Below, in pieces: positions 17,955 to 64,000 of a stretch of DNA of 64,000 bases (its first letter is position 1; each line of letters opens with the position of its first letter). Source of the stretch: Eledone cirrhosa (taxonomy: Eukaryota); the NCBI GenBank assembly GCA_964016885.1, contig OZ024740.1, positions 200,818,001-200,882,000 of the forward strand. Direction: 5' to 3'. The notes under the pieces were generated by a model that worked only from the letters and a program-made list of their open reading frames with translations, was not told the origin of the DNA and made no database searches. The position numbers and the translations under genes were made by a program.

Positions 17955-18275
17955 GAGGCACGTGGCTTAGTGGTTAGAGCATTGGCCTTGCAATCGAAAG
18001 GTTGTGAGTTCAATTCTCAGACCGGATGATGTGTTGTTTCCTTGAGCAAGATACTTTATTTCACATTGCTCCAGTTTACTCAGCTGTAGAAATGAGATGA
18101 TATGGACTGGGGTCCCTATCATTCCACAGTAAAGTGGTCGTGGAGGTGCCACGGCAAAAAAAGCACCCAGCACTCACTGTAAATGAGGTTGGTGTTAGGA
18201 AGGGCATCCTGCTGTAGAAATCAGGCCAGAATCAGTTCCCGTCCCACCCTTGCAAGCAGGGAAAAGTGGATGTAA
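17955..18275 (+). mobile_element. tRNA-derived SINE family 2 (CORE-like body); related copies near 27230-27480(-), 32500-32600(-), 39914-40130(+), 51600-51910(-)
   Basis: A-box tggcttagtgg, B-box gagttcaattc, then ccttgagcaagatactt. Confidence 0.8.
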
Positions 18276-41019: not shown

Positions 41020-42786
41020 TTGTCCATTATCCATATCACAATGGAAAAACAATACTTGGGAACTTCTTTAAAGAATATACCATTACCTTCTAAGGATGAT
41101 TTCTTACTTCTTATGATACAAAAAACCAACCAATTTATCAGAAGAGTCAGATGGAGGGCCTACCACTTCGATAAAAAATCAAAATGTACAGATAGGAAAT
41201 ATCTGTATGATTTCACGACATATAAAAATCCACCACACAACTCTTTACTTGAAAACTTTGAGAAAGACCTTTTTAATTTAATCAAACACCTCAAATTTAA
41301 GAGGTATAAATCTAACTTTCAAAAGGACCTTGATTCTACCCTATTGGACCTAAAAAAATCTAAAAAAATCCATGTCCACTCGGACAAAACTGGAAACCTA
41401 TATCACATGGATATTGAAAATTACAATGAGTTCATATATAAAGAACTCAGGAAAAATTATAGAAAAACAAACAATGCGTCACTTACCAATATCAACAACA
41501 AAACACACAGCATAGTGAATAGACTTAATATTGAAGATAGAACTGAACCTTTGGCATTGAAAAGACCACACTTCAACCTGAAAGATCATAAATCAAACTT
41601 TAACTCTAATCCTTCTATAAGACTTATATGCCCTTCCAAATCTGATATTGGAATAATTAGTAAAAAAAATTTAGATAGAGTCATCCCACAAATAAGAAAA
41701 CATGTTAATTTACCACTCTGGGAAAACACATCCCAGGTAATTAACTGGTTTAATAATATTAGATATAATTCCTCTGCTTCATTTCTACAATTTGATATAG
41801 ATAATTACTATTCATCTATATCACCTATACTCCTGAACAAAGCCTTGATATTTGCTAAAAATAGATCTAACTTAACTTTGGATGACATTAATATTATTAC
41901 ACATGCTAGACTAACACTACTGGAATTTCAGAATGAATAATGGACCAGAAACACATATAGTAATCTTTCTGATATTACTATGGGCTCAAGCGATTCTGCC
42001 CAAATTACTGATCTTGTGGGCCTCTTTCTTCTTTTTAACATAAATGCTTCCTTTCCCCACCTTAAAGGTGGTTTATATCGTGACGACTGTCTTCTTCTTT
42101 CCAATAACCTTAGCCTCTCAGAGATAGAAAAAAATAAAAAGCTTATTAGAACTTTCCTTAAAGACTATTATAGTCTAGATATTACATTTGAAAACACAAG
42201 TAAAGTAGTTAATTTCCTAGATATAACATTAGACTTATCTACGGGTATCTACCAACCTTACCATAAACCCAACCAAAATTTACACTACATACACTCACAA
42301 TCTAATCACCCTAAATCTATCCTTAAAAACCTTGCATATAATATATCACTTAGAATTTCTAACCTTTCGTCTAACCAAGATGTATTTGATAAAAATGCGA
42401 CCTTTTATAACGAAGTTCTAGCTAGAAGTGGCCACAAAAATAGATTAGTATATATACCTTCTACCAATAACACTACAAACATACAACCTAATATTACCAA
42501 CAAACACCAAATGAAACGTACACACCTAAATGCCACTCACACTATACCCCAAAATACCAACATAAAACCAAATTTCTCTAACTCTTCTAATATACAGTAT
42601 AGTAACTCTCAAAAAACTACTCATCCTACAACTCTAATAAATGTTAATAATAAAACTCCTAATAAACAAGCTAAAACACCTAAATCAATAAATCTAACTA
42701 AAAATGTGTGCGGAGAGGTCATTAACAATAATTCTCCTAGTAAACATCAGGATGCATCCTATAAAAACAATAACATTCTATCATGA
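41020..42786 (+). pseudogene. Naiad-like PLE reverse transcriptase with one in-frame TAA at 41938-41940; its own GIY-YIG is not seen
   Basis: SLKNIPLP, FIRRVRWRA, DKTGNLY, LKDHKSNF...RLICPSKSDIG, FLQFDIDNYYSSIS, MGSSDSAQITDLVG, GLYRDD, NFLDITLDL, YIHSQSNHP. Confidence 0.9.
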
Positions 42787-44554
42787 AATACCGTCAAATA
42801 TAGACCACAACATCATGAAGAAGATCAACAACCTGGCTTCAAAATACCACAACTCATTTACTGATAAGGAAAGAGACTACATCACCAATTTTGAGCCGAA
42901 ACCCAGCAACCTGTATGGCCTACCGAAAGTTCACAAGTCAAAAGAAATACAACTGGCAGTAAGAGAACAAAACAGTGAGTACATTAAATTATTACACCCA
43001 AAAGACTTAAAACTTAGACCTATTATAGCTGGTCCAACAAGCCCCACTCACCGTCTAAGCAACTTTGTTGACATTATATTGAAACCACTATGTATTCACA
43101 TACCCAGTTTCATCCGGGATGATATCGACTTCCTGTCCCATCTTCCCAAAACCACGGAAACGAATTCACTTCTACTCAGTTTTGATGTGGTAAGCCTTTA
43201 CACCAACATTACACATGATTTAGGAATAAAGGCGGTTAAATACTGGGTGGAAAAACATAGAGAAGTGATTCCCATTAGATTCACAGCGCCATTTATATTA
43301 GACGCAGTTAAACTTATTCTGGAAAACAACACTTTCTTCTTCAATGGAAAGAATTACATCCAAATTAGAGGCACAGCGATGGGAACGAAGTGTGATCCCG
43401 TTTACGCGAACTCTGTAATGGGATACTTAGAACAACAACTCTACCAAGAAATAGAGGAAAAATATAGTACTGACTTTAGAAAGTACATTGAAAAATCTTG
43501 GAAGAGATTCCTTGACGACTGTTTCATCATCTGGACAGAATCTCTAGATACTCTGGATGAGTTCAATATCCTCCTGAATAACCTACACCCATCTCTCCAA
43601 TTCACAAAAGAGATGAGTAGGACCAAATTACCATTCCTAGATATAATGATAATCAAAAACGACACCACCATTACCACGGATATATATTATAAACACACAG
43701 ACATCCATCAATATCTGAATTTTAAGTCGTGCCATCCACCTCATACAAAACGCAACATCCCATACTGCCTAGCCAGAAGAATTTGAACCATTGTAGAAGA
43801 TACGAATACCAGGTACAAACGCCTAACAGAACTAAGAGAATTTTTGCTCAAACAAAAATACCCATCTCTACTTATAGAAAATGGCATACAGCGGGCTATA
43901 AAAATACCTATACAACAACTTAGAACAACCCAAGGAAGAAGAAACCAAGAACTAGTCATACCATTTATAATGCCACACAACCCATGTCACCAGAATATAT
44001 TCAACACTGCCAAAGCAAACCTACCGATCATTGCTCAAAGTAATGAATTAAAAGGCTTAATCACAGATCGATCTTTGACTCTTAGTAAAAGACAGCCAAA
44101 AAATTTGAAGCAATTGTTAACAAAAGCAAAGTGTGACCTTAACAACAAAGACCAATCATTCACTGTATCTAAATGCAATGATAATCGATGCGGCACATGT
44201 CAATCCATACACGCCGGTCAATATATGAAAACAAAAACTGGAAAAATATTCCCAAATGCAAATATGAACTGCAAAAGCAGAAATCTAATTTACTGCATTA
44301 AATGCCCGAATTGTGAAGAAATATATGTCGGTCAAACTGGAAATGCACTATCGGAACGTGCACGGGTACACCGTCAACAAATCAGAGACCCAAATGTCCG
44401 TCAGATACCCCTAAGCGGCCACCTGGCAACATGTGGTCAGGGAATATTTATAATATTCCCATTCTACAAATTACACAGCCCAAGTGAAATCAAGAGAAAA
44501 ATCAAAGAAAAGAATTTTATTGATAAATTCAAACCCAAGCTAAATGAACAATAA
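42704..44554 (+). pseudogene. Nested 5'-truncated Neptune-like PLE RT + GIY-YIG; single frame with one internal TGA at 43784-43786
   Basis: LYGLPKVHK, LRPIIAG, FDVVSLYTNI, GTAMGT, WKRFLDDCF, LPFLDI, CxxxRCxTC, NLIYCIKCPNC..YVGQTG. ORFs 42704..43786 and 43844..44554 share the same frame. Confidence 0.92.
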
Positions 44555-44940
44555 TAACGCCTAGGGGTATTACTTCTACTACCACTATGACCACGACCAC
44601 TAACAACAACAACAACAACAACAACAATAATAATAATAATAATAATAAAAGTGATGTTGATGGTGATGATTAATAGAAAATGCTATTTTCATCATTTCAA
44701 AAAGCAAAACAATTGATACGTTGGGTATGACTATTGGTCGTTAGCATGCTCAACCAGCCGTGACGCTTAAACCAATCAGCTGTAGTAATTCAGTGAAACT
44801 ACACACTGATTGGTCGAAATACAGTTTACAGGGCTTTGCATTCTGAAGCCACTTTTCTCTGTATAAAATGTATAAAAGGTAGTAAATTTACCCATCTCAT
44901 TACAGTTGAAAATTGCAAACTCGACCTTCACCACATATCA

Positions 44941-44979
44941 TGAACCTGAAGATTGCGAAAGCATGAAAGTACTTGTTCA
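44941..44979 (+). ncRNA. Minimal type I hammerhead ribozyme at the Neptune 3' end
   Basis: tgaac-CTGAAGA-t-tgc-gaaa-gca-t-GAAA-gtac-TT-gttca. Confidence 0.82.
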
Positions 44980-53257: not shown

Positions 53258-53322
<65 letters not shown>

Positions 53323-53324
<2 letters not shown>

Positions 53325-54065
53325 TACCAGAAGTACCCGGCGTTGCGCGGCTGTAAGTCCACCTTTGCTCTGTTGTTAAAATGTGTGAAAGTTACTTCCC
53401 GCGCATCACAGGTGCAAAAACCTTCGAACCTCAAGGAAAAAATACAGAGGTTAGTAGACGCAGGTGTGTAATTGAGCATAAATAATGGATCAATTGTCGA
53501 TATACAGTGTATCGTTGAAATTGTTCTTTGCACGACTGACGGAGGTCAAATTGACTTGAAATTGAATTTTCAGTTGATTTTTAAAGCAGGGTGAAAAAGT
53601 CGATTTTGCAATATTACACACTGAATTCTTCTGCCAAAAATAAGGGTTGCCTCCCTTGCCGAGACCCACGTGGGTATTGGTAACGGTCAATCCTTGGCCT
53701 GGCACTTGAACTGAAACCTGTTGAGAAAGTGACTTCCTTGTTCAATCATCTTACCAAAAGCTTAACATTATTTGTCTAAGCGGACAGTACTTGATTTAGG
53801 AGTCGCAGGAACCCAAATGCTGGATTTTACCAACCATCCAGGGGTCCGGGTAAATTTTTCAATCACATTTTTTTATTTGTTTGACCCGAATTATTTGGTC
53901 GTTTCTATGGCTGTGCGGATAATGGTTTAACCATCGTCTCAGTGTGTTTGGCCTTTTAACGTATGTTGTAGCTCTGGTTCGTTAGAATTTATTGAGCGCT
54001 TGCCACACATCTCGGAAGTTGTTTTTCGCTAATTTCCAATAGCCGAAATACGATTCTCGCTAATT
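53323..54065 (-). mobile_element. Non-autonomous Helitron-like element carrying an unidentified structured segment
   Basis: The minus-strand end ccgcgcaacgccgggtacttctggtag|t resembles a Helitron 3' hairpin plus CTRR end. 53603-54065 is homologous to 56470-56955 and 61890-62375. Confidence 0.5.
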
Positions 54066-54094
54066 TATATTTGTATATATATATATATATATAT

Positions 54095-55811: not shown

Positions 55812-55829
<18 letters not shown>

Positions 55830-55855
<26 letters not shown>

Positions 55856-56337
55856 CTCTATTTTCATTTATATATATATATATATATGCTAAGGGTATAT
55901 GAATTTAAGAATGCTCAGCCACTTACACAAAATTGATTCCATGATCAAGCTGTTCCGTTGATTGAACAACCAAGTTATTAATGATTGTAACCTATGGAGG
56001 TATATTCCATACCCTAATTACTCTCATCTGTATACATCATACTCTATCTTCATTCTCATTCCTTCTTATATATCCTCTATTTTTTCTAATCCTATTCGTT
56101 TCTTTCTATTGGGTGGGAGCAGGCTTCATTTTTCCTTTTAATTTCTTTCATATTTTCAATTTTTTATACTTTTTTTTACATATTGTTTTCTTTACATCTA
56201 TATGAAATATGTCGGTATTATGTGTTATGTTTTATTATTTCTATTTTCTTTATTATTATGCAGGTGGCAATTCCTTATAGATGTCACATAAGTTAAATGG
56301 CTTTTTGTTACCGTATTTCACACACACACACACATTT

Positions 56338-56390
<53 letters not shown>

Positions 56391-56961
56391 TCTATTCTAT
56401 TGACTGCCGAATAGCTTTGTTATATTTAACCACTCTGTCGAGAGCTTCATTCGATTTGTGATATTTTGCATTTTCGCAATATTATACACAGATGAATTCA
56501 TTCGCCTAATTTAGGTGTTGCCTCCCTTGCTGAACCCCACGTGGGGTCAGTTACAGACACATCTATGTGGTCTTTCGAACTGAATCCCGTTGATAACGCG
56601 TACTCCTAGTTCAGTTAGGATACGAGAAACTTAACATCCTTTATGTAAGTGGACAGTAAATGACTTATGGAGCCGCAGAAACCCCAACACTGGACTTTAC
56701 CATCATCCCAGGGGTCCGGGTGAGTATCAAACATTTATGCTTTCATATATTTTTATATCTGTATATCTGTTTGACCCGAAATAGGAGATCGAATCTTCGC
56801 TATGTGGATAATTAGTTTAACCACCATCTCAGTGTGTTTGGCCTTTAACGTAAGTTGTAAGCTCTAATTCATTTTAATTATAGAGCGCTTGCCTCACAGT
56901 TCGAAAGTGTTTTCTCGTTATTTCATGGGCTGAAATTCGATTCTCGTTAATTTTTACTCAT

Positions 56962-57045
<84 letters not shown>

Positions 57046-58224
57046 ATATATATATATGTGGGGGGGGGGGGGGGGGTATAAAATAATTCCGTCGGAAAAG
57101 TCCAGGAAAAGAGGAAAAAAGAGTGCTCTATGTAGGTAACAGAGCTTAATACTTATGTAATAAACAACATAAGGCAATTATTCCATTTACCAATGGTTTC
57201 TTAAAAGCAAAAAATGTTGCTTTCAATCGTCAGAATGAAAAATTCCTGGTGTATTTATTGATATTGGATTCTAAAAACAAAAATGCAATCTATATGAAAG
57301 TGAGGCTGGAGAAGGAAGAAGGAAAGGAAAAATAAAATAAAAACACACATACAAACACACACACGCACACACACACACATCATTATATACATACACACAT
57401 ATATATATATATATATACACACATACATACATACACACATATACACATATATATATGTATATATATATACATACACATACATATACACATACATACACAC
57501 ATAAATATCAACATATCAATACATACACATACATATATACAACCACACACATATATATACATATATATATATATAGAAATAGAAATATATATATATATAT
57601 GCATACAGATATACATACATAGCCATACACACATACAAATACATAGATACATACATACACACAATCGTACGTATATACACACACATACATACATAGCCAT
57701 ACAATTATACACATACAAATACGTACATATCACAAACACGGACAACCAAATACAAACACACACATATATATATATGTGTGTATAAAACTCATTCTTAGAT
57801 AATTCATATGAACCTTATTTAACTCTAAAATATACATATATATATATATATATATATACACATACACATACATACACATACATACATACTAACATACACA
57901 TATATACCTACACACACATATATACATACACATACATATTTATACGTACACACACACACACACATATACATATATAACTCAATATATATATATATATATA
58001 TATATAAGAAAGAACATAAATATTATAAAATAAATATTGTATATATAAAAAAAATTTTGGGAATACGACAAATAATAAGTAAAAAAATATATATTTAGAA
58101 AAGGGTATAAATGCCCATAGCAGACCTAGAGCACTCAACAAGTTCCTGGAGCAAAAGATCAATGAAAATAATCATCAAATCACTATATGTAATGATGCAC
58201 ATACATACACCCTTATACATATAT

Positions 58225-58293
<69 letters not shown>

Positions 58294-58562
58294 AATATAT
58301 ATATACAAACACACACACACAAAAATGTGTGTGTGTCTGTGTATGTATATATGTATACGGGTGTATGTATGTGCATCAATACATATAGTGATTTGATGAT
58401 TATTTTCATTGATCTTTTGCTCGAGGAACTTGTTGAGTGCTCTAGGTCTGCTATGGACATTTATACCCTTTTCTAAATATATTTTTTTTTATTTATTATT
58501 TGTCGTATTCCCAAAAATTTTTTTAGATATACAATATTTATTTTATAATATTTATGTTCTTT

Positions 58563-58570
<8 letters not shown>
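55830..58570 (+). repeat. ~2.75-kb segment duplicated directly at ~61200-63960
   Basis: Near-identical sequence; the spurious ORFs 55981..56205 and 61351..61575 have identical translations. Confidence 0.95.
57181..57240 (-). ncRNA. Type I hammerhead ribozyme
   Basis: tttcatt-CTGACGA-ttgaaagcaa...ttgcttttaa-GAAA-ccattgg-TA-aatggaa. Confidence 0.85.
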
Positions 58571-58597
<27 letters not shown>

Positions 58598-58725
58598 AGT
58601 TATATATGTATATGTGTGTGTGTGTGTGTACGTATGAATATGTATGTGTATGTATATATGTGTGTAGATATATATGTGTACGTTAGTATGTATGTATGTG
58701 TATGTATGTGTATGCGTATATATAT
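57850..58725. repeat. ~870-bp palindrome centred near 58320; second copy at ~63245-64000
   Basis: Mirror-image ORFs 58095..58460(-) and 58111..58476(+) have near-identical translations. Confidence 0.92.
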
Positions 58726-58734
58726 ATATATATA

Positions 58735-59304
58735 TAAGTTGAAAAAAATGAAAACGAAATTTCATTTCTCACTCTTAGTATGGCACTTACTTAAATGTAA
58801 GTATGTATGTATACGTACATACATATATGTATACAGACGTACAGTAGCATGCATATATACATATATATTTATATATATATATATATATACACACATATGC
58901 ATACAGGTACACATACATATATGCACGCATCAGTTTAGTCGACGTTTATTATAACGCCGGCCGCTTTGTTCGTTTGTTTGTCAACAAAGCGAACAGCCTG
59001 AATTTATGCCATACGGTGTTAAGGCAACCACGTCACCTTTTTGTTCAACACTGACACAGGAACGATGGACTAGTTTCAAGCTTGTTAGCTATCATCAGCA
59101 CCGTTTACCCATCTGCCAGATAGTTGAACGTTCGAAAGTATATACTTTCCTTATGAAAATTAACGGCTGAGCAGCCTAATTTGCATATTGAGTGAGTTAA
59201 ATCGGTTAATTCGCTTTGTTGACAAACAAACGAACAAAGCGGCCGGCGTTATAATAAACGTCGACTAAACTGATGCGTGCATATATATATGTGTACCTGT
59301 ATGC

Positions 59305-59351
<47 letters not shown>

Positions 59352-59420
59352 TATATGTATATATGCATGCTACTGTACGTCTGTATACATATATGTATAT
59401 ACGTATACATACATACTTAC

Positions 59421-59425
<5 letters not shown>
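58735..59425. mobile_element. Family C hammerhead element with fold-back arms (~58792-58993 and ~59210-59425)
   Basis: gcatcagtttagtcgacgtttattataacgccggccgctttgttcgtttgtttgtcaacaaagcgaa and its reverse complement. Confidence 0.88.
59062..59104 (-). ncRNA. Minimal type I hammerhead ribozyme
   Basis: acggtg-CTGATGA-t-agct-aaca-agct-t-GAAA-ctag-TC-catcgt. Confidence 0.88.
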
Positions 59426-59470
<45 letters not shown>

Positions 59471-59618
59471 TTTAGAGGTAAATAAGGTTCATATGAATTT
59501 ATCTAAGAATGAGTTTTACATACATATATATATATATATATATGTGTGTGTTTGTATTTGGTTGTGCATGTTTGTGATATGTACGTATTTGTATGTGTAT
59601 AATGGTATTGCTATGTAT

Positions 59619-59666
<48 letters not shown>

Positions 59667-59689
59667 GTATGTATATGTGTGTGTATATA

Positions 59690-59720
<31 letters not shown>

Positions 59721-60465
59721 ATTTGTGTATGCGTATGTATGTGTTTATGTATTTGTATATGTATATTTATGTGTGAGAGTGTGTGTATGTATTTATTTTT
59801 ACGTACGTATGTGTACGTGCATTTGTGTGTATTGCTTACCACGCGTGTTTGTTCATTTATTTGTTGCCTGTATCGCTGTCAACTTTATAATAGTCTTTAT
59901 TTTCTTTTTTATGTCTTTTATTATTATATATATATTTTGTTATATTTATTTGCGTGTGTGAATATGTAGAGGTGTGTGTATATATTTTTCTATTTTTGTG
60001 CATGTATATGTATGCATGTATATATGTGTGTATGTATGTGTATGTATGTACGTGTGTATATACGTACGATTGTGTGTATGTATGTATATGTATGTGTGTA
60101 TGGCTATGTATGTGTATGTGTATGCATATATATATATATTTATATTTCTATATATATATGTATATATATGTGTGTGGTTGTATATATGTATGTGTATGTA
60201 TAGATATGTTAATATTTATGTGTGTATGTATGTATGTGTATATGTATGTGTATGTATATATATACACATATATATATGTGTATATGTGTGTGTGTATGTA
60301 TGTGTGTATGTATATATATATGTGTGTGTATGTATATAATTGCGAGTGTGTTTGCATGTGTGTTTTTATTTTATTTTTCCTTTCCTTCTTCCTTCTCCAG
60401 CCTCACTTTCATATAGATTGCATTTTTGTTTTTAGAATCCAATATCAATAAATACACCAGGATTT

Positions 60466-60526
60466 TTTCATTCTGATGATTGAAAGTGAACATTTTTTGC
60501 TTTTAAGAAACCACTGGTAAATGGAA
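60466..60526 (+). ncRNA. Type I hammerhead ribozyme
   Basis: tttcatt-CTGATGA-ttgaaagt...gcttttaa-GAAA-ccactgg-TA-aatggaa. Confidence 0.85.
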
Positions 60527-60918
60527 TAATTGTCTTATGTTGTTTATTGCATAACTATATATATATATATATATTAATATGTATTGTTTTATGTGAAACC
60601 TTTGCCATACTGTAATATATATGCCTAGTACCATTGCTTGTTTTTTGCCTGGTTATTCTGTATATGCATAATTCCTCTGCACTCTTTCTATACGTTTGCC
60701 TATGTACTGCTAATGTCCTCATTTTATGAGTACCTTTCTTCTTTAATTCCTCTATAATTGTTGTATTATTCTTTTATAATCTTTGTCGCATCCACTGATA
60801 CTGACTACATCATCTTCACTCTTTAAATATTACACTGTTAATAACAACAGTAATATCTACGATTCTTTACAATCATTCTGTGGAATAGGAGGTTAATTAT
60901 ATGTCTAAACTTTGCCAG

Positions 60919-60965
60919 TGCTCCGATGAAACCAAACGAAAGTTTGGAAGAAACGATTGTCAGCA
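60919..60965 (+). ncRNA. Hammerhead-like motif with variant core (CCGATGA)
   Basis: tgct-CCGATGA-aa-ccaaac-gaaa-gtttgg-aa-GAAA-cgattg-TC-agca, followed by AATAAA. Confidence 0.65.
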
Positions 60966-61184
60966 ATAAAATGTTTTGAACATAGTTTTGATTATTCTGT
61001 TATTTATATTCCGGCTCTGTAAAACATCTGATGTGTTTACATTGAGCTATTTTTGTTACTGGTAATAAAGTGATGATGAATTACTGACCTTTCCTATTTA
61101 TAATTATATATAATGTATATATAAGTATAAATAATATTATTATTATTATATGAATATGTATGTATACCTTCACAACAGACACCT

Positions 61185-61223
<39 letters not shown>

Positions 61224-61707
61224 CTCTATTTTCATTTATATATATATATATATATATGCTAACGGTATATGAATTTAAGAATGCTCAGCCACTTACACAA
61301 AATTGATTCCATGATCAAGCTGTTCCGTTGATTGAACAATCAAGTTATTAATGATTGTAACCTATGGAGGTATATTCCATACCCTAATTACTCTCATCTG
61401 TATACATCATACTCTATCTTCATTCTCATTCCTTCTTATATATCCTCTATTTTTTCTAATCCTATTCGTTTCTTTCTATTGGGTGGGAGCAGGCTTCATT
61501 TTTCCTTTTAATTTCTTTCATATTTTCAATTTTTTATACTTTTTTTTACATATTGTTTTCTTTACATCTATATGAAATATGTCGGTATTATGTGTTATGT
61601 TTTATTATTTCTATTTTCTTTATTATTATGCAGGTGGCAATTCCTTATAGATGTCACATAAGTTAAATGGCTTTTTGTTACCGTATTACACACACACACA
61701 CACACAC

Positions 61708-61809
<102 letters not shown>

Positions 61810-62385
61810 TCTATTCTATTGACTGCCGAATAGCTTTGTTATATTTAACCACTCTGTCGAGAGCTTCATTCGATTTGTGATATTTTGCATTTTCGCAATA
61901 TTATACACAGATGAATTCATTCGCCTAATTTAGGTGTTGCCTCCCTTGCTGAACCCCACGTGGGGTCAGTTACAGACACATCTATGTGGTCTTTCGAACT
62001 GAATCCCGTTGACAACGCGTACTCCTAGTTCAGTCAGGATACAAGAAACTTAACATCCTTTATGTAAGTGGACAGTAAATGACTTATGGAGCCGCAGAAA
62101 CCCCAACACTGGACTTCACCATCATCCCAGGGGTCCGGGTGAGTATAAAACATTTATGCTTTCATATATTTTTATATCTGTATATCTGTTTGACCCGAAA
62201 TAGGAGATCGAATCTTCGCTATGTGGATGATTAGTTTAACCACCATCTCATTGTGTTTGGCCTTTAACGTAAGTTGTAAGCTCTAATTCATTTGAATTAT
62301 CTAGCGCTTGCCTCACAACTCGAAAGTGTTTTTTTCGTTATTTCATGGGCTGAAATTCGATTCTCGTTAATTTTTGCTTATATAT

Positions 62386-62442
<57 letters not shown>

Positions 62443-62557
62443 GGGGGGGGGTGTATAAAGTAATTCCGTCGGAAAAGTCCAGGAAAAAAGGAAAAAAGAG
62501 TGCTCTATGTAGGTAACAGAGCTTAATACTTATGTAATAAACAACATAAGGCAATTA

Positions 62558-62617
62558 TTCCATTTACCAGTGGTTTCTTAAAAGCAAAAAATGTTGCTTT
62601 CAATCGTCAGAATGAAA
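62558..62617 (-). ncRNA. Type I hammerhead ribozyme (duplicated copy)
   Basis: Copy of 57181-57240. Confidence 0.85.
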
Positions 62618-62728
62618 AATTCCTAGTGTATTTATTGATATTGGATTCTAAAAACAAAAATGCAATCTATATGAAAGTGAGGCTGGAGAAGGAAGAATGA
62701 AAGGAAAAATAAAATAAAAACACACATA

Positions 62729-62768
<40 letters not shown>

Positions 62769-63607
62769 ATTATATACATACACACATATATATATATATA
62801 TACACACATACATACACACACACATATACACATATATATATGTATATATATATACATACACATACATATACACATACATACATACACACATAAATATCAA
62901 CATATCAATACATACACATACATATATACAACCACACACATATATATACATATATATATATATAGAAATATAAATATATATATATATATATGCATACAGA
63001 TATACATACATAGCCATACACACATACAAATACATAGATACATACATACACACAATCGTACGTATATACACACACATACATAGCCATACAATTATACACA
63101 TACAAATACGTACATATCACAAACACGCACAACCAAATACAAACACACACATATATATATATGTGTGTATAAAACTCATTCTTAGATAATTCATATGAAC
63201 CTTATTTAACTCTAAAATATACATATATATATATATATATATATACACATACACATACATACACATACATACATACTAACATACACATATATACCTACAC
63301 ACACATATATACATACACATACATATTCATACGTACGCACACACACACACATATACATATATAACTCAATATATATATATATATATAAGAAAGAACATAA
63401 ATATTATAAAATAAATATTGTATATATAAAAAAAAATTTGGGAATACGTCAAATAATAAATAAAAAAATATATATTTAGAAAAGGGTATAAATGCCCATA
63501 GCAGACCTAGAGCACTCAACAAGTTCCTGGAGCAAAAGATCAATGAAAATAATCATCAAATCACTATATGTAATGATGCACATACATACACCCTTATACA
63601 TATACAC

Positions 63608-63680
<73 letters not shown>

Positions 63681-63714
63681 AATATATATATACATACACA
63701 CACACACACAAAAA

Positions 63715-63748
<34 letters not shown>

Positions 63749-63955
63749 TAAGGGTGTATGTATGTGCATCAATACATATAGTGATTTGATGATTATTTTC
63801 ATTGATCTTTTGCTCGAGGAACTTGTTGAGTGCTCTAGGTCTGCTATGGGCATTTATACCCTTTTCTAAATATATTTTTTTTTATTTATTATATGTCGTA
63901 TTACGAAAAATTTTTTTAGATATACAATATTTATTTTATAATATTTATGTTCTTT

Positions 63956-64000
<45 letters not shown>

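Follow-up and report, generated by a model that had tools for sequence, protein, structure and literature searches.

The repeat present three times in the window (the whole stretch of 64,000 nt that was analysed) belongs to a non-coding unit of ~610 bp (597-658 bp across families) with thousands of copies in the genome. We consider it quite probable that this unit is a tandem repeat with a variant type I hammerhead, namely a non-LTR retrozyme of the non-autonomous Penelope-like kind, whose RNA would cleave itself and be copied into (TA)n by a reverse transcriptase (RT) acting in trans. The assignment builds on features seen directly in genomic DNA, i.e. the size of the unit, its families, the fixed 3′ end in (TA)n, truncation, tandems, an invariant core, covarying stems and a pile-up of 5′ ends. 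An earlier sequence-only reading of the window had described a shorter element (~450 bp) as a structured RNA or single-stranded DNA module, possibly a new ribozyme or a signal of a mobile element. Our results support a structured plus-strand RNA that is under selection and resides in a mobile element; it is probably a ribozyme, but not one of a new class.

At least six families (A-F) and several subfamilies were distinguished. Identity between families is 53-80%, copies differ by 2-5% from the majority of their own family, and all families have a common architecture. Genome searches with copies 1 and 2 of the window gave 4,029 and 2,726 first-look candidates, respectively, and the 40 candidates scored per query were 94-100% identical to it. 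Further families were reached through diverged neighbours of known copies. Since loci were picked by similarity or exact pattern, they do not make up a random sample. Locus flanks indicate that the right (3′) end of the unit is fixed and the left (5′) ends are variable: (TA)n follows 187 of the 203 free 3′ ends, as compared to a background of 8.7%, and precedes 138 of 197 truncated 5′ ends. In many loci a whole unit comes right after a 5′-truncated piece, and the junction between the two is constant (partial head-to-tail tandems). Full dimers and trimers are also present, and inverted pieces occur occasionally (inverted neighbours in 5 loci, some from other families).

Several other features of the unit were noticed. 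The stretch of unit positions 1-110 plus the junction (e.g. L009:1367-1480), which lies upstream of the window copies, has a conserved TCTCC at the unit junction in six families, and a long covarying hairpin at positions 22-78 is retained in all six. In six loci (L113, L122, L124, L131, L157 and L164) one SINE is inserted at nearly one site, the stem II loop (unit positions ~292-313), with an apparent duplication of 11-20 bp; this could be a target hot spot or a composite subfamily. A satellite-like array (L175/L176, G000:C1:150104000-150121000, continuing) holds at least 28 units with a period of 608-632 bp and higher-order repeats. The core has decayed in about half of its units, which suggests amplification at the DNA level. 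Viral contigs gave 0 matches to the family A/B pattern and 120 to a loose core pattern; 0/120 had the stems and none fits the profile, and the two matches in metagenomes are both unrelated. Family A-like contigs and the tandem junction were found in three sequencing runs of one sample with library kind unspecified, which shows neither expression nor circles. A literature search that excluded subscription papers, Repbase and Dfam found no published description of the ~610-bp element. These sources, or work on hammerhead variants in Penelope-like elements, may already catalogue it.

The three homologous stretches reported for the window were recovered at their positions (Table 1). Copy 1 is 98.7% identical to the family A majority, and its relatives elsewhere in the genome are 94-98% identical to it; copy 2 is 98.4% identical to the family B majority. 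The window copies of the two families share 73-74% identity. Copies 2 and 3 are one insertion and not independent, because both sit in a local duplication (97% identical) whose flanks, 55812-58595 and 61180-63988, match at 96-98%. The segmental duplication covers window positions 55812-64000 and beyond (L032, L033) and has at least 4 copies of this family B insertion. The left ends do vary, as had been observed, but they are 5′ truncations rather than distinct termini. No ORF of at least 120 aa overlaps any of the three copies, in agreement with the sequence-only reading. The Rfam search it had called for gave no match in the whole window at gathering level except a tRNA at 17961, and nothing real on copy 2 at E<=10. 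The palindrome CCCACGTGGG is found in a hairpin at window positions 53669-53678 and 56536-56549, with variants kept in other families; a role as dimerisation loop or as E-box promoter site is conceivable.

Table 1. Positions of the element copies, their hammerhead features and the adjoining fragment within the window.
Feature	Position	Strand	Remarks
Helitron-like 3′ end fragment, separate from the element	53322-53602	-	hairpin and CTAG-type end; abuts copy 1
Copy 1	53603-54073	+	family A, unit positions 138-608 of 608; 5′-truncated; ends in (TA)n
Hammerhead module, copy 1	53708-53851	+	predicted
Pseudoknot strands, copy 1	53708-53712 / 53739-53743	+	predicted
Stem I, copy 1	53717-53720 / 53847-53850	+	predicted
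Core UUGAGAA, copy 1	53721-53727	+	
Stem II, copy 1	53729-53806	+	predicted
Core GGAA, copy 1	53808-53811	+	GAAA otherwise in family A; followed by stem III
GUC, copy 1	53844-53846	+	predicted cut after 53846
ACCCG, copy 1	53884-53888	+	can pair with the strand right after the predicted cut, competing with stem I
3′-terminal hairpin and fixed unit 3′ end, copy 1	54044-54073	+	followed by (TA)n
Copy 2	56387-56958	+	family B, unit positions 52-623 of 623; 5′-truncated; (TA)n on both sides
Hammerhead module, copy 2	56577-56721	+	core intact: UUGAUAA 56590-56596, GAAA 56678-56681
GUC, copy 2	56714-56716	+	predicted cut after 56716
Copy 3	61806-62378	+	family B, unit positions 52-623; local segmental duplicate of copy 2
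Hammerhead module, copy 3	61996-62140	+	core intact: UUGACAA 62009-62015, GAAA 62097-62100, GUC 62133-62135

Only a few runs are invariant, four of which (GTTGA, GTTC, AGAAAC and GTCC) lie within one 145-nt module. The order of its parts is CCYG (stem I), UUGANAA, A or C, stem II of ~80 nt (span ~78), A, GAAA, stem III, GUC and CRGG (stem I). Three helices thus surround a junction that is open at stem I, which is the topology of a type I hammerhead. None of the 12 core positions varies among the six families, compared with 163 invariant columns of 502 (32%) in the alignment overall, and each of the four bases occurs at position N7 (G 58, U 46, A 24 and C 15 in 143 distinct modules). GAAAC...GUC, likewise invariant in six families, contains the GAAA, the A15.1-U16.1 pair and the NUH triplet. 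It is likely that the conserved junction motifs, correctly singled out before, are the core of a type I hammerhead with U3-A8 in place of C3-G8, and cleavage is predicted from this core. The absence of a canonical hammerhead was also correctly noted: CUGANGA is missing from most copies, which have UUGANAA instead. This is not a new ribozyme class: the module conforms to a type I hammerhead whose core has U3-A8, a variant reported in PMC4209133 and PMC3088659. What appears to be new is its combination of features; the U3-A8 core alone has already been reported.

The exact U3-A8 core pattern matches 2,983 times in the genome and its reversed control 0 times, and relaxing positions 3 and 8 raises the number to 3,565. 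Among the first 100 relaxed matches listed, 88 have U-A, 9 U·G and 3 C·A at 3/8. The last three (G000:C1:4734493, 29042447 and 63967742) belong to a subfamily that resembles family C, has C3·A8 mismatched in its core and has multiplied. The canonical C3-G8 pattern has 10 matches, and of 9 loci examined, 8 have the same scaffold and 1 looks like chance. Positions 3 and 8 show no clean covariation, and the pair is no evidence by itself, because 10 C-G are not above independent change (about 20 expected). Two copies of a very distant family (L385, L390) were seen that have a canonical C3-G8 core with the same extra A before GAAAC and all stem II pairs changed. The core is intact in 107 of the 122 covered copies of families A, B, C and E. 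The G10.1-C11.1 pair that closes stem II is absent; A·A (12/18) or C·A (6/18) stands between core and stem II instead, and the next pair is G-C in 12/18. The mismatch could lower the predicted activity. Elsewhere in the window (44940-44979, + strand) we noticed by eye a minimal hammerhead-like motif, consisting of CUGAAGA, a 3-bp stem II that has U·U at the base, GAAAGUACUU and a 5-bp stem I. It lies ~390 nt past the RT/GIY-YIG ORFs at 42698-44554 and is unlike the module of the ~610-bp unit.

Pairing is preserved across the diverged copies beyond chance, as had been claimed. In 21 natural copies (4 of the 21 rows chosen for C3-G8) 90% of 560 cells pair and 13 of 27 pairs change on both sides. 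None of 500 shuffles reaches any of the pairing measures and slid controls pair at 30-44%; in this test related sequences can beat shuffles and the structure was drawn from the same families. Run without constraints on the 21 copies, RNAalifold returned the three-way junction and left the core unpaired. Stem II pairs differ on both sides among families (GUGAC/GUCGC, CUGAA/UUCAA, GUAAA/UUUAC and GGGAU/AUCCC). One of the stems suggested earlier, cgga/tccg, had to be given up: it clashes with the core, and families D, E and F have tcca instead of tccg. Twelve helices written on family A gave, over 12 subfamilies, 499 Watson-Crick, 51 G-U, 6 A-C and 15 other cells. The excess of G-U over A-C favours the plus strand as the structured RNA, the strand that the sequence-only reading had preferred. 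A general helix scan, with 108 helices on the plus and 69 on the minus strand (shuffles: mean 76, maximum 116), is modestly above controls. Single copies fold weakly better than shuffles (plus z -2.5 and -0.6, minus z -0.8 and -1.8), and family majorities folded as circles reach z -2.1 to -4.7 on the plus and -0.7 to -3.2 on the minus strand (12 shuffles each).

For the isolated module, no more than 1 kcal/mol separates the hammerhead fold from the best one in 13 of 18 parsed sequences. In whole-unit folding with a model that ignores pseudoknots, the probability of stem I is 0-0.13 in the circle and exceeds 0.3 in 2 of 8 families in the nascent RNA. In 17 of 18 sequences, a GAAC upstream of stem I and a GUUC in a stem II bulge could form a predicted pseudoknot of 4-5 bp. 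Its first four pairs are kept in these 17, with one A-U to G-C change (GGAC/GUCC in one family). An ACCYG downstream matches the post-cut strand in 114 of 117 modules, a count with few independent changes behind it.

The 5′ ends of copies bear on whether the hammerhead acts. We mapped them in 93 upstream partial pieces and 20 solo copies, a sample picked by the 3′ end only. In 26 of 58 at-risk copies the 5′ end falls 0-24 nt after the predicted cut, as compared to 53/658 in eight 25-nt windows further 3′ (Fisher p = 4e-12) and 2/32 in the 25 nt before the cut (p = 1e-4). The first ends past the cut are at +1, +3 and +3, and the stretch from -9 to 0 has none. About six ends near -79 come from SINE interruptions and not from truncation. 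Because the post-cut stretch is AT-rich, part of the pile-up could come from microhomology to (TA)n or from stalling of the polymerase. At one locus (L207:1986-2095), a piece in inverted orientation next to a family E insertion starts at most 3 nt from the predicted cut.

It is rather improbable that the hammerhead-like fold of this same retroelement is weak or dead and acts as a protein-binding or RT signal, with 5′ ends clustering through structure or AT-rich microhomology. The mismatch at the base of stem II, the U·G and C·A combinations at 3/8 in amplified subfamilies and the whole-unit folds disfavouring stem I would all fit such a loss of activity, and minimal Penelope hammerheads are described in PMC4209133 as cleaving poorly in vitro. 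A dead ribozyme would, however, have to be reconciled with 12 core positions, including GUC, that are unchanged down to 53% identity and with an edge of 5′ ends that begins exactly at +1.

Penelope pseudo-LTRs bear hammerheads and make partial tandems (PMC4209133 and PMC8557442), and Penelope-like ORFs are present in the 64-kb window. The unit might be a pseudo-LTR that became detached from an autonomous Penelope-like element and spread in 5′-truncated pieces of the long element, not as its own RNA. We regard this as very unlikely: in the loci read, another unit's 3′ end or (TA)n, and not an ORF, lies upstream of copies reaching unit position 1, and tblastn of the Penelope proteins of the window against 142 loci gave matches at scattered places only. 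No autonomous RT/GIY-YIG partner sharing the module was present among the loci examined.

A rolling-circle DNA element of the Helitron kind, with the minus strand as its sense and structured as single-stranded DNA, could also be suggested by the single fixed end, the arrays of head-to-tail units, the insertions into AT tracts and the Helitron-type end next to copy 1. This is hardly credible given the strand preference of G-U pairs, conserved motifs that spell a ribozyme core, a unit that has no hairpin-CTAG end and does not show the 5′-TC start plus 3′ hairpin-CTRR end of Helitrons, and the separate family to which the Helitron-type end belongs. That fragment, which we take to be Helitron-like, has 40 matches (94-100%); 11/11 other copies read continue into different sequence and 0/11 have the ~610-bp element next to them. 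The element is not a single-stranded DNA or Helitron signal. Group I/II introns and HDV-like, twister, hairpin, RNase P/MRP and telomerase RNAs were set aside after comparison by eye, as their topology or motifs do not fit. A retained spliceosomal intron, with GT just past the cut and a pyrimidine-AG ~100 nt further, would suit families A-D; in E and F, however, there is no AG at that place, and no contig joint skips the putative intron.

Our preferred reading, a non-LTR retrozyme of the non-autonomous Penelope-like kind, agrees with known systems in its main traits. The unit is non-coding and tandem, has one type I hammerhead per unit and no LTR; 5′ truncation, partial tandems, inverted pieces and microsatellite targets are those of non-autonomous Penelope-like elements, and the partial tandems, dimers/trimers and inverted pieces match the arrangement given in section 6 of PMC8557442. 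Non-LTR retrozymes have been defined, and their circular RNAs shown, in PMC7229834. According to bioRxiv 10.64898/2026.07.22.740005, a vertebrate survey with lengths of 51-972 bp, they derive from Penelope elements. As described in these two sources, metazoan non-LTR retrozymes are likewise non-coding, low-GC tandem units with one type I hammerhead and no LTR/PBS/PPT, present as monomers, dimers and long arrays in thousands of copies. Their units are 150-450 bp in invertebrates, whereas the unit here has ~600-660 bp, a U3-A8 core, a ~80-nt stem II with a predicted pseudoknot, mostly 5′-truncated copies and a 3′ end fixed in (TA)n.

PMC4209133 describes hammerheads in Penelope pseudo-LTRs and a Schistosoma variant with U3-A8, notes one extra base following position 9 and proposes circles as templates for tandems. 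The Cercyon hammerheads of Schistosoma, as presented there, share with ours type I topology, a helix I of 4-5 bp, the extra nucleotide after position 9, U3-A8 and partial tandems. They are minimal, with a helix II of 7-8 bp and almost no helix III, in contrast to the long helices II and III, the extra A before GAAA and the lack of an ORF here. Natural U3-A8 cores active in vitro, stem I-stem II pseudoknots and a U·U mismatch at 10.1/11.1 as natural variants are all recorded in PMC3088659. U3-A8 and a mismatch where stem II begins are common to both, and so would be a paired contact linking stem II to the side of stem I. The mismatch is U·U there and A·A/C·A here. In our unit the predicted pseudoknot engages an internal bulge of a very long stem II, and all these features come together in one animal retroelement of high copy number.

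The Naiad elements (PMC8557442) target (TA)n as the unit does, and they and non-autonomous Chlamys elements share with it partial/inverted tandems and the lack of a detectable canonical hammerhead. The search string used for them, 'cuganga', would miss a UUGANAA core. The octopus Naiad consensus 3′ ends in the supplement of that paper are, by eye, unlike this unit, and string searches of the supplement found no matching core. In the last 150 nt of Naiad_Ovul and Naiad_Obim in the same supplement, hammerhead pieces look scrambled by eye, with GAAA before CUGAUGA and complementary stems, and these are possibly a permuted or dimeric ribozyme.

Taken as a non-LTR retrozyme, the unit could propagate as follows. 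Read-through transcription of a tandem locus on the plus strand would yield an RNA that is cut after GUC once the nascent chain makes stem I, aided by the pseudoknot between the 5′ strand and the stem II bulge. Pairing of the downstream ACCYG with the post-cut strand would then hold the mature RNA in an inactive fold and switch the ribozyme off, and monomers may be ligated to circles. A Penelope-like RT/endonuclease acting in trans would prime at the UA-rich 3′ end of the unit on nicked (TA)n and copy one unit or more, round the circle or along a multimer. A stop at the cleaved 5′ end would leave the common ~220-bp pieces, and copying past the junction would give partial tandems. It is conceivable, if doubtful, that the element represents an extended hammerhead subtype (U3-A8, a purine mismatch for G10.1-C11.1, a ~80-nt stem II pseudoknotted to stem I and an off-switch helix) with efficient monomer cleavage and a 600-nt circular RNA with RT-capture domains, one of a hidden class explaining why some abundant Penelope-type elements seem ribozyme-free.

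Based on these results, a repeat that had no name becomes a testable candidate ribozyme with a predicted cut site. Its families form a natural mutation series for the tolerance of the core at positions 3/8 (U-A, U·G, C·A and C-G). The role of hammerheads in retrotransposition is termed unclear in PMC8557442, and insertion ends piling up where the cut is predicted would be a rare genomic trace of hammerhead action in this process. Ribozyme-bearing retroelements may be undercounted in invertebrates, because descriptors with CUGANGA and short stems, and also Rfam, miss this element, yet it has thousands of copies in many families.
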